DNA from: Octopus vulgaris
Lineage: Eukaryota
Direction: 5' to 3'
Length of the DNA: 64,000 nucleotides
Assembly: GCA_951406725.2 (NCBI GenBank)
Contig: OX597831.1
Location: 2,728,001 to 2,792,000, forward strand
Position 1 is the first letter of the stretch. Every line of letters begins with the position of its first letter. Below the pieces are notes generated by a model. The model did not search any database. It was not told the DNA's origin and was given only the letters and a program-made list of their open reading frames with translations. A program made the position numbers and the translations under genes. Below are positions 16,901 through 52,190 of this stretch, one piece after another.

Positions 16901-16936
<36 letters not shown>

Positions 16937-16972
16937 GTGTGTGTGTGGTGTGTGTGTGTGTATCCTCATCTT

Positions 16973-17011
<39 letters not shown>

Positions 17012-17199
17012 CTTAGAATAACTTAGAAAGGTTTTGGCCAGTATTGGCCCAGGCCATGTCTAACTTAATAGCACCACCTGGCTATTATATATATATATAT
17101 ATATATATAACGGGAAGGTTTACGAAAATAAACAAAAGATGAAGGCAGTACAAACAAACAAATGTATTAGTATGGCGCTCAGGAATAGAAATAGAACAA

Positions 17200-17240
17200 G
17201 TCTTTTACGTTTCGAGCCTACGCTCTTTGACAGAAAGATA
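17200..17240 (-). ncRNA. Non-canonical hammerhead-like motif in a Penelope-like fragment
   Basis: Minus strand reads TCTTT-CTGTCAAA-GAGC GTAG GCTC-GAAACGTA-AAAGA. Stems I and II pair, but the core deviates from CUGANGA. Confidence 0.45.
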
Positions 17241-17441
17241 CACAGAAAAAAACAAGGAGAGAAACAAGGAGAGGAAAAATATACATATATATATATACAT
17301 GCAATAGTGTGGTAAAACGTTTGCTTCCAACCACATGGTTCCATGTTTAGTCCCACTTCATGGCACCTTGGGCAACTGTCTCCTACATTAGCCACAGGCT
17401 GACCAAAGGCTTGTGAGTGGATTTGAAACAGAAAGAAGCCC

Positions 17442-17501
<60 letters not shown>

Positions 17502-17671
17502 GATCGAATGAAAAGACAACAAATGGAAAATATGACATACCTATATATGTAACTAAAAAAAAAAACTGTATTCTTTTATTCTTTTATTTGTTTCAGTCAA
17601 TGCTGGAGCACCACCTTTAGTCGAGCAAATGCATATGTGTGTGAGTATCTCTCAGAATTATGTATGTGTAC

Positions 17672-17718
<47 letters not shown>

Positions 17719-17825
17719 TAAGAGAGTGACCACCATGTGATCCGGGTTTTTATGCACTAAGCCACCTGGTGGTAAATGGATGTGCTATTAAATTAGTACC
17801 CAATTTTCTCACCCTTATCGGTTGA

Positions 17826-17877
17826 TTAAACCCACCTGAAGAATGTCAGAAGACAGGAAACAATTGTAGTGGTTAAT
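17826..17877 (+). ncRNA. Minimal type-I hammerhead ribozyme (Penelope-like element)
   Basis: CCAC(17832-35)-CTGAAGA-A TGTC AGAA GACA G-GAAAC-AATT-GTA(17868)-GTGG. The core is intact, with an A.G mismatch at the base of helix II. Confidence 0.75.
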
Positions 17878-17959
17878 TTATATTATAATTTATATTAAAA
17901 TTTTATGTATTGATTAATTCTTTCGTTGTTTGATTTGTAAAGTAGTGGTTTTGTCTCGA

Positions 17960-18020
<61 letters not shown>

Positions 18021-18265
18021 GTATAATATTTTATATAGATATATATTAATATATATAAATTTATATATGTATATGTGTAAGTGTTTGTATTTTGATGAGT
18101 GTGCATATATGTGTTTGTAAACGTTTGTTTTTTTTTGTATGTATATAATGTTTATATTTACATGTCACATGTTTGAGTGGAAACACCCGTGTCCATATAA
18201 ATACATTTCATTTTGTTGGACTTTCTTTTTCGGTTAGCATGTTTTTTTGATGAGCTTGTTATCAT

Positions 18266-18356
18266 AAATCTCCTGAAGAGATTGGTACACTGCTGACCAT
18301 TATGTATCCTGCCAGACATTTTGGAATGTCCCCGTTGAAACATATGTAGAAGACTT
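18266..18356 (+). ncRNA. Minimal type-I hammerhead ribozyme with extended helix II
   Basis: TCTC-CTGAAGA(18273-79)-GATTGG...CCGTT-GAAAC-ATAT-GTA(18348)-GAAGA. The core is intact and the stems are partly decayed. Confidence 0.65.
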
Positions 18357-18398
18357 CATGACATCAATGGATTAACATCTTAAGTGTTCGTACCTTTT

Positions 18399-18432
<34 letters not shown>

Positions 18433-18472
18433 CAAATGAAAGATAGAAGATGGAATATATGAGAATATATTG

Positions 18473-18580
18473 TTAACACAACAATTGTTTTGACACATTT
18501 TGCAGTGACTCCTCTTGTGGGACACACAAAAACTGGTTCAGGAGTATCCGGTGGTGCAGACATATCTCGTCGGGTGATAA
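18473..18580 (-). ncRNA. Inactivated hammerhead ribozyme with long helix II
   Basis: Minus strand reads TTATCAC-CCGACGA-GATATGT...ATGTGTC-AAAAC-AATT-GTT-GTGTTAA. Core changes are U4C and G12A, the latter compatible with CpG decay. Confidence 0.6.
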
Positions 18581-18982
18581 ATAATTAAAAAATCTCGTTA
18601 AAATGACTGTTCCATAATGCACCTTTCCATTTTGCAGGGAGAAAAACAGCCAGACGGAGGAAAATTCTTCATATATATGGAAGATCCAAAAATAAAATTG
18701 TAGAAGACAAAAAGAGAAACAAACACTTAATCCATCAAGAAAAAGTATTGAAAATAACCGTTAACCAATATGGATGTATAAACGCCCTGGGGCAAGTAGT
18801 ATGGCATGAGGTTCACAGTTATTCAACTATCTCTTTCACATTCATATATTAACAATTTGATTCTTAATTATAAAAAAAATATGAAACCATTATTCTATGC
18901 TAATTTAATTAATTTTGTCAAGCTCCCTTTTCTGTTTGTAATTGTTTTTTTTTATTTTTAGAGGTACTGTGAAGTGTGAGCC

Positions 18983-19347
18983 ATGGCAAACAATTTAAAT
19001 CAAGAGCAAAGAAAGTGGATACTAAAGCAGTACTGGAAGTCTGAAAATGCCGAGCAGGTGCACACAGCATGACAAGAAGCCTTTTGCAACTCCTCCACCT
19101 TCACACCAGACAATTTATCAGATAAGAAATAAATTTGATACCACAGGTTCAGTGAGTAATGTACCAAAATCTGGATGCTGTAAGACTTCTGGGACTGAAA
19201 AAAAAAATGAGATGTTAGTGGCTACATTTGTGAACAGTCCACAGAAGTCCACACTAGAACTATCCATACCAAGAACATCAATGTAATAAAATGTTTTAAA
19301 AGAAATTTAAAGTGCCTACATGATAACTGTAAATCTACTTTTGGGCC

Positions 19348-19352
<5 letters not shown>
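18983..19352 (+). mobile_element. Tc1/mariner-superfamily transposon remnant (DUF4817-type HTH N-terminus) with right TIR
   Basis: Translation reads MANNLNQEQRKWILKQYWKSENAEQV..*..FATPPPSHQTIYQIRNKFDTTGSV..PKSG..SPQKST. It ends CTTTTGGGCCACCC followed by (TA)n. Confidence 0.75.
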
Positions 19353-19384
<32 letters not shown>

Positions 19385-19608
19385 TCATTTAGCGTCCGCT
19401 TTCCATGCTAGCATGGGTTGGATGGTTCAACTGGGGTCTGTGAAGCCAGAAAGCTGCATCAGGCCCAGTCTGATCTGGCAGTGTTTCTACGGCTGGATAC
19501 CCTTCATATATATATATATATATACTCAAAATAAGCAACAAGAATGACTCCGGTAATTTGGTACGATCGTTTGATATGAAAATTTTTGTATTAATGGAAA
19601 ACCTGTAT

Positions 19609-19698
19609 AATTGGCTGATGAGTGCTCAGCATTTTAAAATTGTTGTAATACTTACAACATTTAATAAAATGATGTAGTACGAAACGATCGTACCAAAT
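19609..19698 (+). ncRNA. Canonical-core minimal type-I hammerhead ribozyme with a 59-nt helix II hairpin
   Basis: TTGG(19611-14)-CTGATGA(19615-21)-GTGCT...AGTAC(19622-80)-GAAAC-GATC-GTA(19692)-CCAA. All conserved core nucleotides and G10.1-C11.1 are present. Confidence 0.85.
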
Positions 19699-20074
19699 TC
19701 TTGTTGCTTATTTGGATTCTTGTTGCTTATTTGGATTATAATCATCCAACGGATTTTTATGGATAACACCATACAGAATTCTGGTGCATCTAAATTAAGT
19801 ACCATATTCATTTGAATCTAATTTTTTGCTGAACTTATATATATATATATAGGGAGAGAGAGAGAGAGAGAGAGGAATAAGAAAATGGAGGGGATCAATA
19901 GGTGATATTCATTAACTTTTAGACATTATATTATGTCAGTGTATTTATTTATTTACTAAAATGACAATTATAACAATATACATACATGTATAACATATTA
20001 TGCTTTACATATAAAATATATAAAGATACCAGTAATTATTAAAATATATAATATACAGGAATAGAAATTGGGAT

Positions 20075-20205
20075 AATATCTTACAGCTGTTTCAGCCAAG
20101 AGGTAAAAATACCTCATTCTGCCTTTATCCCTTCAGTAGACTGAAGTAATTAGTGAATGAAATTGAGATACTTGGGTGTTTCTCTAGGCTTCATCAGAGG
20201 TTTTA
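20075..20205 (-). ncRNA. Minimal type-I hammerhead ribozyme with a ~97-nt helix II domain
   Basis: Minus strand reads AAAACCT-CTGATGA-AGCCTAGAG...CTCTTGGCT-GAAAC-AGCT-GTA-AGATATT. The core is intact and stem I is imperfect. Confidence 0.75.
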
Positions 20206-20320
20206 GAAAGTACATAAGGTTATGTGTGTGTGTGTGTAAATATGATAATTAAGTAACCAGATGATGAATTTTTCTTTTTTTTTTTTTTGCTCAGTAAGTG
20301 TTATTTCCTATTTGCCTCTA

Positions 20321-20683
20321 TCTAGAAATCAAGAGGAAATTATTGCTATTCCCTTCCAACTTTGCTTTTGTGACCTGGACATCAATGTTTTGAAACTGAC
20401 CTATTTTCCATTACATTTCAGACAGACTCAGAGCTGAGTTGCTGAAGCAGAAATATTGTTATTGCAAATATTCTGCTCAATAACACAGATTTGCTTGTCA
20501 ATTGCTTGACCTTAACTACTTGAGCATGTCCCTTAGGGACTGACAATATGAGCGTTTCTGATCATGAGAAGAAATAGTGAGGGAGCATCATAGCAATGTG
20601 TTGAGAGGGATTCTACCAAGTTTGAACAAATCTAACAAAAGCAGAGTTTGAGGGAAATATTAGCCATATTTCATACTTTCTAG
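20321..20683. mobile_element. Degenerate element with long terminal inverted repeats (MITE-like)
   Basis: The left end CTAGAAA..GCTATTCCCTTCCAACTTTGCTTTTGT resembles the reverse complement of the right end, CTAGAAAG..GCTAATATTTCCCTCAAACTCTGCTTTTGT. Confidence 0.5.
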
Positions 20684-21389
20684 GGACAAGCAAATGGGAA
20701 ACAGCAGTTGCTACCCTAGGACAAAAATCATGATACCTAATGTAATCTGGACCTAGATTTGATAATGTGGTCCTAAATGCTATGCATGCCTGAAAAAATA
20801 ACAGAGACATGACTGGCATAACTGGAACTTGTTTAATTGTGTGTCTGCATGAATAATGGCTGAGATGAAGCTAAGTAACAACAACAACAACAACTGCAAT
20901 ATTTTTCTGTACATATAAACTCTACTAACCCATTTACGTGTGTTGTAGAGATCAAAGAAGCTTTATGAAAAAAAAATTATGTTTGTGTACCTGAAGGTAA
21001 AAATATTAAAAAACAGTGAATATTTAGAATGAGATTAATAGAAAAAAACAATAATGGATGAAATACAATGTCAAGGTTATGTGTTGTTTTTGAAAACAAA
21101 CAAAGTTGGCGGTGGCAGGGTTGGGGTGGGGGGGTGTGATGTAGGGAAATAAAAACAAAAGAGAAAAAAACGGAAAAAAAGAAATCTACATTTCCAAGAG
21201 AGAAAAAAAATGTACAAAAAAAAACAATGGAAAGCAAAGAACGGAATCGAATCATGCTTCCTTCCATTGTAAAGTAGTTTTAAGTAATTTGAAATAACCA
21301 AAACCAATTATTTGGATGATGTTATTAAAAGAAAAAAAAAGAATGAAGACTATATAATAAAAAAAATCTTGGTAATAATGATGATGATG

Positions 21390-47720: not shown

Positions 47721-48354
47721 TTGGCACTGGATATCTTGCCTTGGCTTGTCTCTGGATCATGCCAATTGGATGGAGAGGGCCTTTGAGGTGCTGTGCAAGC
47801 CTTATTGAACCAAAAATTCAAGATTGTATGATCACTGGTGAGACAACTTTCCAATTCCCACTTGAGTAGGAGGGTGCCGCAGCAAGCATGGAAGCCACAA
47901 GCACCTGCCTGAGTTAAGCCAGCTTCAGGTGCAATAACCTCATGCATAGGCATTGCTGTCATTTTGCGTGAGCAATGGTCAGTGATGGTCATCTTTGGTC
48001 AGGAGTGAACGGCTATCATATGTATATTCTTTTATTCTTTTACTCGTTTCAGTCATTTGACTGTGCCCATACTGGAGCACCACCTTAAAGGGTTTTAGTC
48101 CGAAGAAATTGACCCCAGAACTTATTCTTTGTAAGCCTAGTACTTATTCTATCAGTCTCTTTTGCTGAACTGCGAAGTTACAGGGGCATAAGCACACCAA
48201 CATCGATTGTCAAGTGGTGGCAGGGGTGGGGAACAAACACAGACACACACACACACATACACACATAAATACACACACACACACACACATATACATGTAT
48301 TGTTGGCGATTTTCTTCCTCCGTCTTCTCTTCCTTGGACCTTTCCTTTTTCTAT

Positions 48355-48392
48355 GTTTCTGACGAAGAGCTCCGCTCGAAATGTTGAATCCT
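48355..48392 (+). ncRNA. Degenerate hammerhead-like motif in a Penelope-like fragment (~48300-48495)
   Basis: GTTT-CTGACGA-A-GAGC TCC GCTC-GAAATGTT-GAAT. The layout resembles 17200-17240 and helix III is decayed. Confidence 0.45.
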
Positions 48393-49039
48393 CTTTCTTT
48401 TCTTTCCTTTCCTGAGTGTCCAATAACACTATACTTGTTCCACATCTTCGTGTTGTGTTTTCTCTTTGTGTTTTCATGTTTGGATTAACTACATACAAAA
48501 CAAATCAAAATAGATGAACATCAATGGAATTTGTATCTTTGTGGCACACAAGAAAACCATCCGAGCGTGACCATAGCCAGTACCGCATCGACTGGCCTCC
48601 GTGCTGTGGGCACGTAACAAACACCATCCGATCGTGGCCGTTCACCAGCCTCATCTGGCACCTGTGTCGGTGGCACATAAAAAACACCATCCGAGCGTGG
48701 CTGTCTGCCAGCCTCGTCTGGCACCTGTGTCGGTGGCACATAAAAAACACCATCCGAGCGTGGCCGTCTGCCAGCCTCGTCTGGCACCTGTGTCGGTGGC
48801 ACAAAAAACACCATCCAAGCATGGCCGTTCGCCAGCCTCGTCTGGCACCTGTGTCGGTGGCACATAAAATCACCCACTACATTCTCGGAGTGGTTGGCGT
48901 TAGGAAGGGTATCCAGCTGTAGAAACACTGCCAGATCTGACTGGATGGTGCAGCCTTCGGGCTCCCCAGACCCCAGTTGAACCGTCCAACCCATTCTAGC
49001 ATGGAAAGCGGACGTTAAATGATGATGATGATGATGATG

Positions 49040-50689: not shown

Positions 50690-52190
50690 CCAATCACTGC
50701 TGAACATCTACATTCACAGCCCAATATTTCACAACCATGTGGTTTCACATTTCTAACATATCCAATAGATACTTGCTCACTGCTTCATGTTTCATCGTCA
50801 TGCAGTTTTGAATCTCTGACACATTCATCGTACAGCTTCTCCAATGACAGCGGAATCTCTTCATTCACTGCTACATGTTTCACTGTCATGTGGTATCACA
50901 TTTTTGATATATACATCATTGTAGTCCCTTTAATCACTGCTAAACCTCTACATTCATTTATCCATGTTTCATGACAGCGGAATCTCTTCATTCACTGCTA
51001 CATGTTTCACTGTCATGTGGTATCACATTTTTGACATATACATCATTGTAGTCCCTCTAGTCACTGCTAAACCTCTACATTCATTTATCCATGTTTCATG
51101 ACAGCGGAATCTCTTCATTCACTGCTACATGTTTCACTGTCATGTGGTATCACATTTTTGACATATACATCATTGTAGTCCCTCTAATCACTGCTAAACC
51201 TCTACATTCATTGATCCATGTTTCATGGCCATACAGTATCAAATTTGTGACTTTACACATATATCGTACAAACTCTCCTATATTTTCAGAATTTCACTGC
51301 TACATGTTTTACCATCACATAGTATTACATTTTTTATACATACCTCTACATTCACTGCTTTATGCTTCATGACCATACAGTATCAAATTTGTGACTTTTA
51401 AACAGAGTATGATATATAAACACACAATCCCTCCTATAACTCTGGAATCTCTACATTCACTGCTACATGTTTAACACGCCGGGCAAAATGCATAGCCATA
51501 TTTCGTCTGCCGTTACGTTCTGAGTTCAAATTCCACCGAGGTCGACTTTGCCTTTCATCCTTTCGGGGTCGATTAAATAAGTACCAGTTACACACTGGGG
51601 TCGATATAATCGACTTGATCCCTTTGTCTGTCCTTGTTTGTCCTCTCTGTGTTTAGCCCCTTGTGGGTAGTAAAGAAATAGATATTTTTGACACATGCCT
51701 CTACATTTACTGCTCCATGTTTCATGAACATACAGTATCAAATTTTTGACATCATACGGTCTCTCTAATCACCGTAGGATTTTTTTCATTCACTGCTACA
51801 TGTTTCACTGTCATGTAGCATCACCTTTTCAACACATCTTTATACTTCCTCCAATCGCTTCCAACCCTATGCTCACTGCTCCACTTCACATGGTTATAAG
51901 ATCTCTACACATATATCATGCAGTCTCTCCAATCACTGTCAAAAAACCCACTACATTCACAAATACATGTTTTACTATGAAGTAGTATCACATTTCTGAT
52001 GTACATTAAACAGCCTCTCCAATGACCGCAGAATCTCTACACCCATTGCTACATGTTTCACTGTTATGTAATGCAGCGTTTTTGACACAAACATCTTTAT
52101 AGTCCCTCAAATCACTGCCAAACTTCTACATTCATTGCTCCACGTTTCACAGCCATAACGTGACGAATTTGTGACATATACGCATACATC
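50690..52190. repeat. Minisatellite: three near-identical 127-bp units inside a degenerate ~60-70-bp array, interrupted by a SINE
   Basis: ATGACAGCGGAATCTCTTCATTCACTGCTACATGTTTCACTG recurs at ~50844, 50971 and 51098. CATTCACTGCTACATGTTT variants extend on both sides. Confidence 0.9.

Follow-up and report, generated by a model that had tools for sequence, protein, structure and literature searches.

What brings six different hammerhead ribozyme motifs together within 3 kb of the Octopus vulgaris genome? The motifs lie at positions 17200-20205 of a 64,000-nucleotide stretch of contig OX597831.1 (assembly GCA_951406725.2, positions 2728001-2792000 of the contig), which we call the window; the genome searched comprises 2.8 Gb in 227 contigs. 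A preliminary description, made from the letters of the window, had proposed a hot-spot where several independent Penelope-like families landed in (TA)n and left mostly their ribozyme-bearing ends. We are confident that each of the six motifs is the 3'-end hammerhead of a separate, abundant Penelope-like family, truncated copies of which likely accumulated by repeated insertion into (TA)n; the majority of the copies present here are predicted to be unable to cleave. The families are named F1 to F6 in window order, and other genomic loci taken for comparison carry L-numbers. The six islands are as follows.

17110-17280, minus strand: F1, 3' end of a Penelope-like element resembling Neptune; hammerhead, of minimal form, at 17233-17206; the core of the family is CUGUNGA (A6U).
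17826-17965, plus strand: F2, 3' end of an apparently young, putative Hydra-type element; hammerhead at 17836-17868 with intact core, 4-bp helix I and an AAUU palindrome.
17980-18400, plus strand: F3, 3' untranslated region (UTR) and end of a putative Hydra-type element; hammerhead at 18273-18348 with intact core, helix I mismatched in the window copy.
18430-18810, minus strand: F4, 3' UTR and end of a putative Hydra-type element; hammerhead at 18573-18480, family core CCGACGA (U4C).
19525-19835, plus strand: F5, putative Hydra-type; inverted short copy of the 3' end at 19525-19572, then a direct copy with hammerhead at 19615-19692 and tail.
19855-20222, minus strand: F6, 3' end of a putative Hydra-type element; hammerhead at 20197-20082 with intact core, third helix-I pair broken in the window copy.

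All six type-I hammerhead-shaped motifs were located where the preliminary description had placed them, by direct reading or by a purpose-built descriptor, run in a palindromic (canonical) version, a wider version and a mismatch-tolerant version. The descriptor finds intact cores at 17836-17868 (+), 18273-18348 (+), 19615-19692 (+) and 20082-20197 (-), which are F2, F3, F5 and F6, the same number of motifs that had been said to keep CUGANGA...GAAAC...GUA. Allowing mismatches adds 18480-18573 (-), F4. F1, at 17206-17233 (-), was read directly and departs from the descriptor pattern at three points (U at 6, A at 8 and one additional A ahead of helix II). In the comparison with shuffled sequence that had been proposed, the palindromic descriptor gives four matches in the 3-kb region versus none in 5,000 dinucleotide shuffles of that region, at most one in 5,000 with the TA tracts removed, and none in 200 shuffles of the whole window.

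Chance matches in AT-rich sequence might nevertheless be suspected from two results. The proposed Rfam search came back empty: between 17100 and 20300, with E up to 10, no hammerhead family is among the 21 matches, so that all six motifs are missed, and over the whole window only microsatellite-driven families of microRNA type appear among the matches listed (150 of 239). Single-strand folding places five of the six motifs no better than shuffles at the 5% level and is uninformative for those five, the F5 motif alone folding better than its shuffles (z -2.1). Against this stand the empty shuffles of the region and a background sample of 80 blind 10-kb stretches (800 kb) plus 20 stretches neighbouring the window (200 kb): the blind stretches hold 22 matches to the canonical descriptor versus 0.3 in shuffles, and 41 versus 2.3 for the wider one. 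Family copies also share the same helices. We regard the chance reading as refuted and give it next to no probability.

In the window copies the type-I core (C3 U4 G5 A6 N7 G8 A9, G12 A13 A14, the pair A15.1-U16.1 and H17) is complete in F2, F3, F5 and F6. F1 has lost G8 (A at 8) on top of its family-wide U6, and F4 has lost G12 (A at 12) in addition to C4. Helices I and II close on the core, with helix I open-ended, in relatives of all six families; the helix-I mismatch of the window copies of F3 and F6 is missing from most of their relatives, and one helix-I pair differs on both sides between F1 and a sister family, F7 (eight hand-picked rows). F5 is the best-preserved motif among the six. 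The term 'minimal', applied to the motifs at the outset, is true of F1 only, whose palindromic helix III has no loop and whose A9 is followed by one additional nucleotide. In F2-F6, helix III is palindromic over 8 nt, with a 4-nt palindromic loop, and in F3-F6 57-97 nt separate the two core halves. Outside the core, the absence of shared similarity holds up: blastn among seven core-bearing stretches returns no mutual match.

If the islands are unrelated to each other, to what are they related? A genome search with each island returned first-look candidates in large numbers (F1, 2294; F2, 997; F3, 101; F4, 2224; F5, 1991; F6, 1978), and 40 candidates were scored per search. The relatives have a fixed 3' end 50-215 bases beyond the motif and variable 5' stop points, and inverted pairs are frequent among those of F2, F3 and F5. 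F5 of the window opens with its own 3' end in inverted form and combines 5' truncation, an inverted 5' copy and a tail; an inverted-copy, 5'-truncated layout is described for Penelope-like elements in PMC8557442.

Pfam missed most of the Hydra-type endonuclease and reverse transcriptase (RT) fragments, so islands were linked to proteins through tblastn searches whose queries were endonuclease fragments taken from the collected loci. The island lies downstream of the endonuclease on the same strand at 28 of 30 loci for F1 and at 25 of 30 for F4 (seed locus counted in both). Walking upstream, an endonuclease was reached at 14 of 30 loci for F5, 12 of them with the island, and at 5 of 30 for F6, two of them with the island. 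For F3, the endonuclease is upstream of the hammerhead in L210, and the endonuclease end plus the intervening stretch are common to four of 12 other loci examined (L206, L208, L056 and L209). The F2 link is a chain from L366 (endonuclease and UTR) to L050 (UTR and motif), the UTR matches scored being 90-98% identical, one short piece excepted; a 671-amino-acid RT frame in L367, upstream of another F2 UTR match, is assigned to F2 only because of its position. RVT_1 (E 1e-7 to 3e-6) and, weakly, GIY-YIG are matched by three frames of 820-853 amino acids linked to F1; the RT of F4 gives only a weak match (E 0.02), and that associated with F2 is recognised by motifs, without a Pfam match. An endonuclease is therefore linked to all six families, and an RT is reached for F1, weakly for F4 and by motifs for F2. 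The Penelope GIY-YIG linkage that was to be checked is thus found for every island, and the proposal of independent Penelope-like families reduced to ribozyme-bearing 3' ends beside (TA)n is upheld.

These links also bear on whether the islands could be non-autonomous retrozymes or SINE-like (short interspersed element-like) repeats unrelated to Penelope proteins. Most copies are indeed short and without a reading frame, and many F2 copies start at a common point about 30 bases before the motif. Longer copies of all six families, on the other hand, run co-linearly into GIY-YIG frames. A tandem-repeat scan found no array over any of the six motifs, and it is tandem units that define retrozymes. 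The non-LTR (long terminal repeat) retrozymes of bioRxiv 10.64898/2026.07.22.740005 are alike in that their type-I hammerheads lie in short repeats without coding capacity and akin to Penelope-like ends; they are tandem units of one family, whereas six families, distributed over the two strands, make up the present mosaic. We consider this reading largely refuted and very unlikely.

The protein fragments suggest to which Penelope clades the families belong. The F1 protein has an RT, a CX4CxxC linker and a C-terminal CCHH-type GIY-YIG domain, as in the Neptune clade; the linker also occurs in Nematis and is hence not decisive. F3-F6 have a CxCX5C linker and no CCHH, the two marks of the Hydra clade (PMC8557442), and the F2 copy that was read, which is cut within the linker, has no CCHH either. 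The 671-amino-acid L367 frame, assigned to F2 by position, has DKT and RIKWK motifs. The six endonucleases are 29-39% identical where alignable, and an 11-row endonuclease tree splits F2-F6 from F1 at 99/99 support, its other forks being open. Judged by such motifs, rather than by a tree with reference elements, five families (F2-F6) appear to be Hydra-type and one (F1) Neptune-like.

Comparison with published elements fits this division. The Hydra clade, including Hydra-1_Obim (Craig et al. 2021, PMC8557442), resembles F3-F6 in its C-terminal GIY-YIG without CCHH and its CxCX5C linker; it is further alike in CxxC and CxH near the end, in a preference for (TA)n, in having a hammerhead, palindromic in helix III, close to the 3' end, and possibly in the DKT and RWK-like motif of the RT that is assigned to F2 by position. 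Insertion of Hydra elements in (TA)n, their hammerheads and the presence of Hydra-1_Obim in an octopus are on record. That study lists one octopus Hydra family, versus at least five here, 29-39% identical; the 57-97 nt between the core halves of F3-F6 are far above those of the listed Hydra motifs, none of which has the CCGA core of the F4 family. By eye, the Hydra-1_Obim hammerhead is unlike any of F2-F6. F1 resembles the minimal metazoan Penelope hammerheads (Cervera and de la Pena 2014, PMC4209133) in its loopless helix III, the extra nucleotide after A9, the G10.1-C11.1 pair and the palindromic 15.2-16.2. Copies that are mostly solo, thousands per genome and inverted pairs nearby are likewise common to that work and ours. 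It differs in the core variant described, which is U3-A8 and not the family-wide U6 of F1, and in the count, up to about 9,000 motifs per genome versus about 77,000 canonical matches extrapolated here.

Some relatives deserve separate mention. F2 looks young, with an open RT frame of at least 671 amino acids that has an asparagine-rich insert (L367:3-2015 (-)). Its UTR (L366:648-1052 (+)) consists of internal repeats of several hundred bases, and its stubs in L038, L039, L043, L048 and L049 (at about 1400-1730) are near-perfect palindromes, with two back-to-back hammerheads on opposite strands 35-80 bases apart. A further Hydra-type family, F8 (L260, L330:3029-3079 and L103:8039-8089), comprises subfamilies with C4 and with U4, and its helix III is a near-palindrome of 9 nt. 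The endonuclease of L260 was rejected as F6's own; it belongs to another element with its own U4C hammerhead.

How would six families come to share one locus? From what is known of the biology of these elements, the endonuclease would nick (TA)n, and reverse transcription would start at the 3' end of the RNA and usually stop early, so that the last 140-420 bases, with the hammerhead, remain. Insertion would leave TA on both sides; the target would thereby survive and receive further elements, among them SINE-like repeats and a DNA-transposon stub. Active parents probably use the hammerhead, homodimerised by way of the palindromic helix III, to trim tandem precursor RNA. The sequences that accompany the six islands are listed below.

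16904-19851: eleven tracts of (TA)6 or longer between the islands, likely insertion targets.
17300-17630: very abundant repeat without a hammerhead between TA tracts, presumably SINE-like; another such repeat is at 19385-19505, and 135 and 61 loci match.
18800-19350, plus strand: broken transposase-like stub without a hammerhead, which we take to be Tc1/mariner; helix-turn-helix start, DUF4817 at E 0.003-0.005, under the curated cut-off.
20525-20632, plus strand: remnant of a seventh hammerhead-bearing family, with G8 lost and the 3' core half missing.

The statement that each motif sits in its own island between (TA)n tracts is broadly right. It fails for F4, whose 5' side directly joins the transposase-like stub, for F6, where a (CT)n run precedes the TA tract, and for F2, which shares its island with another repeat. 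Contigs of other copies of the stub skip about 340 bases of it (18941-19280), suggesting a deleted non-autonomous form. Beyond 17200-20205 the window holds three further hammerhead remnants, at 2902-2971 (-), 20525-20632 (+) and 48344-48400 (+). The first is hammerhead-shaped with good helices, has U in place of G12 and has no relative in 400 kb of background; the last is a copy of F7 with a canonical CUGACGA core and a decayed helix III.

The genome-wide density of such remnants gives the scale for the cluster. By homology (22 multi-member clusters of 49), the blind stretches hold 72 remnants, or one per 11 kb, counted with a library that favours the window's families, whose loci were collected on purpose. 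This rate extrapolates to about 250,000 remnants genome-wide, and the canonical descriptor matches to about 77,000. Remnant counts are overdispersed and increase with TA tracts (rho 0.24, p 0.03): tiles of 3.3 kb average 0.03 remnants if they lack a TA tract and 0.43-0.50 if they have at least three. Tracts of (TA)6 or longer number 11 in the cluster versus a background mean of 3.0 per 3.4 kb, and 4.4% of tiles reach 10; the high count of the cluster is in part expected, because each insertion would split a tract. At the 3'-end motif itself, (TA)4 follows in 46 of 61 matches for F1, 17 of 32 for F2 and 29 of 55 for F5, versus 4.6% of background positions.

Several points weigh against accumulation of Penelope-like ends in (TA)n as the full account. 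The (TA)4 test is weak for F4 (19/59), F6 (13/54, often followed by (CT)n) and F3 (2/32), and the short, fuzzy 3'-end motifs admit false matches. No full-length element with two flanking repeats was seen; in three long F1 copies, checked for two pseudo-LTRs, the only motif within 9.9 kb is the downstream one. The F2 link passes through several loci with no single contiguous copy, and the clade labels come from motifs and not from a tree with reference elements. Six families lie in 3 kb (seven within 3.45 kb, counting the remnant at 20525-20632), while the sampled maximum is three, in one of the 80 blind 10-kb stretches, and no more than two in any of the 20 neighbouring stretches. The number of tiles with six or more expected genome-wide is 0.4-4 under a Poisson model and rises to about 340 under a negative binomial, in which inverted same-family pairs are counted too.

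This excess, with the low Poisson expectation, is also what would speak for a special Penelope-like insertion hot-spot, be it open chromatin, a fragile TA array or a preference for earlier copies, and Penelope-like elements do tend to insert in or next to earlier copies (review PMC6765202). Such a site is made improbable by the overdispersed counts that rise with TA tracts, by the surrounding 200 kb, which are not enriched (11 remnants, one per 18 kb), and by the non-Penelope repeats held in the same tracts; moreover, the window was chosen because it was conspicuous. We leave some small probability to a special local bias, because the expected six-family tiles span 0.4-4 to about 340. The local excess is real and rare and is best read as the upper tail of (TA)n insertion, with no new mechanism needed. 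Of the hot-spot first proposed, the excess of six families in 3 kb thus survives; with one remnant per 11 kb scattered over the genome, it fits the upper tail of that distribution. For an octopus, PMC13282606 reports 31 recently active Penelope-like families and transposon hot-spots, its main text, as available, being silent on ribozymes. A small cluster, with four descriptor matches from apparently three families in 2.1 kb, lies beside an F6 copy in L092.

The preliminary description had added that a transcript crossing the locus would carry several potential self-cleavage sites. Each strand does have three motifs (F2, F3 and F5 on the plus strand; F1, F4 and F6 on the minus strand), and F2 and F5 look structurally intact. 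Four of the six copies are damaged, F1 and F4 in a catalytic guanine (G8 and G12, respectively; PMC6155905) and F3 and F6 in helix I, by changes absent from most family relatives. Hammerheads with a short helix III need a dimer and cut poorly even then in vitro (PMC4209133). The helix-III palindromes are AAUU, AUAU and GAUC on the plus strand, and none, AAUU and AGCU on the minus strand. No same-strand pair agrees, the only agreeing palindromes (AAUU in F2 and F4) being on opposite strands, and heteroduplexes reach -2.2 kcal/mol at best versus -6.4 to -11.1 for the 8-nt homoduplexes. We infer that a transcript would hardly be cut unless another RNA from the matching family were present, and the idea of several cleavage sites is weak.

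The same data bear on a host-selected cassette that regulates a crossing transcript by self-cleavage. The two intact-looking plus-strand motifs and the folding of F5 would be in keeping with it. The damage in four of six copies, the missing same-strand partners and the poor cutting of dimers in vitro are not, and no host protein domain is found in the 126 of 183 listed frames that were scanned. The regulatory reading has no support, and we judge it highly improbable. No RNA run was listed as containing 20262-20870. RNA contigs of four runs are dominated by repeat copies, no listed piece spans the cluster, and they are uninformative on transcription or conservation.

The cluster is mostly ordinary transposon debris and by itself adds little, since Penelope-end hammerheads and (TA)n targeting have been published, an octopus Hydra family included. 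The sampled density implies hammerhead-shaped motifs of the order of 100,000 in this genome, which fall into 22 or more sequence clusters; of the six put to Rfam, none was recognised. Only the A6U family F1 is potentially new. U is found at position 6 in 78 of 82 distinct copies, and in 14 of 15 copies from 1 Mb that was not fetched for similarity, which extrapolates to about 40,000 copies. The hammerhead consensus leaves two positions free, N7 and H17. In F1, N7 is C in 34 copies, U in 31, G in nine and A in eight, and H17 is A in 58, U in 24 and never G. Shared variants of F1 affect one of 31 constrained positions (the outer helix-I pair) versus 31 of 124 free ones (Fisher p 0.004), in a test where copies are related, CpG transitions are set aside, flank indels inflate the free count and position labels were set by the authors. 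Other changes recur as well: C4 is present in 34 of 36 F4 copies, and it occurs in F7, in F8 and in two additional clusters. F7, the sister family, combines the helix II of F1 with A6, with or without C4. U3-A8 cores, a variant already published, occur in at least four sequence clusters (L135, L330, L339 and L354).

Could an A6U hammerhead still cut? An argument against it comes from a type III hammerhead, for which full mutational scanning showed low activity of CUGA-turn mutants (PMC9901934). In its favour, the natural A6C of phage Bcep176 cuts slowly and prefers Mn2+ (PMC3088659), and U4C leaves a viroid infectious (PMC7151607); both are single CUGA-turn changes with reported activity that is low and measurable. 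Those are single isolates, whereas here A6U is fixed in a family of some 40,000 extrapolated copies and U4C recurs in several families. In a literature search that covered Penelope variants and supplementary figures in part, we found no natural A6U. It is a tentative suggestion, which we would sooner doubt than believe, that the commonest hammerhead in this genome is a naturally occurring A6U ribozyme still cutting (weakly, or only as a dimer, with a helper protein or with another metal), kept by selection through about 40,000 Neptune-like copies and missed by CUGANGA descriptors and Rfam. If this were true, the recurrent U4C and U3-A8 would join it in showing that Penelope elements weaken their ribozymes instead of losing them. 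Hammerheads are possibly dispensable for Penelope elements, according to PMC8557442; a natural series for testing what the ribozyme does in them is provided by F1, which has U6, and the sister family F7, which has A6 and either U4 or C4, the two having helix II in common.

Elsewhere in the window, the sole Pfam domain at E 0.001 in the 126 scanned frames is an RT remnant at 801-2160 (+), frameshifted (RVT_1, E 1e-14 and 6e-10) and likely from a LINE (long interspersed element). Tandem arrays occur at 14641-15547 (unit of 184 bases), 13182-13382 (63), 48609-48869 (63) and 50844-51227 (127), and both 63-base arrays appear to repeat a single unit, in reverse-complement orientation to each other.

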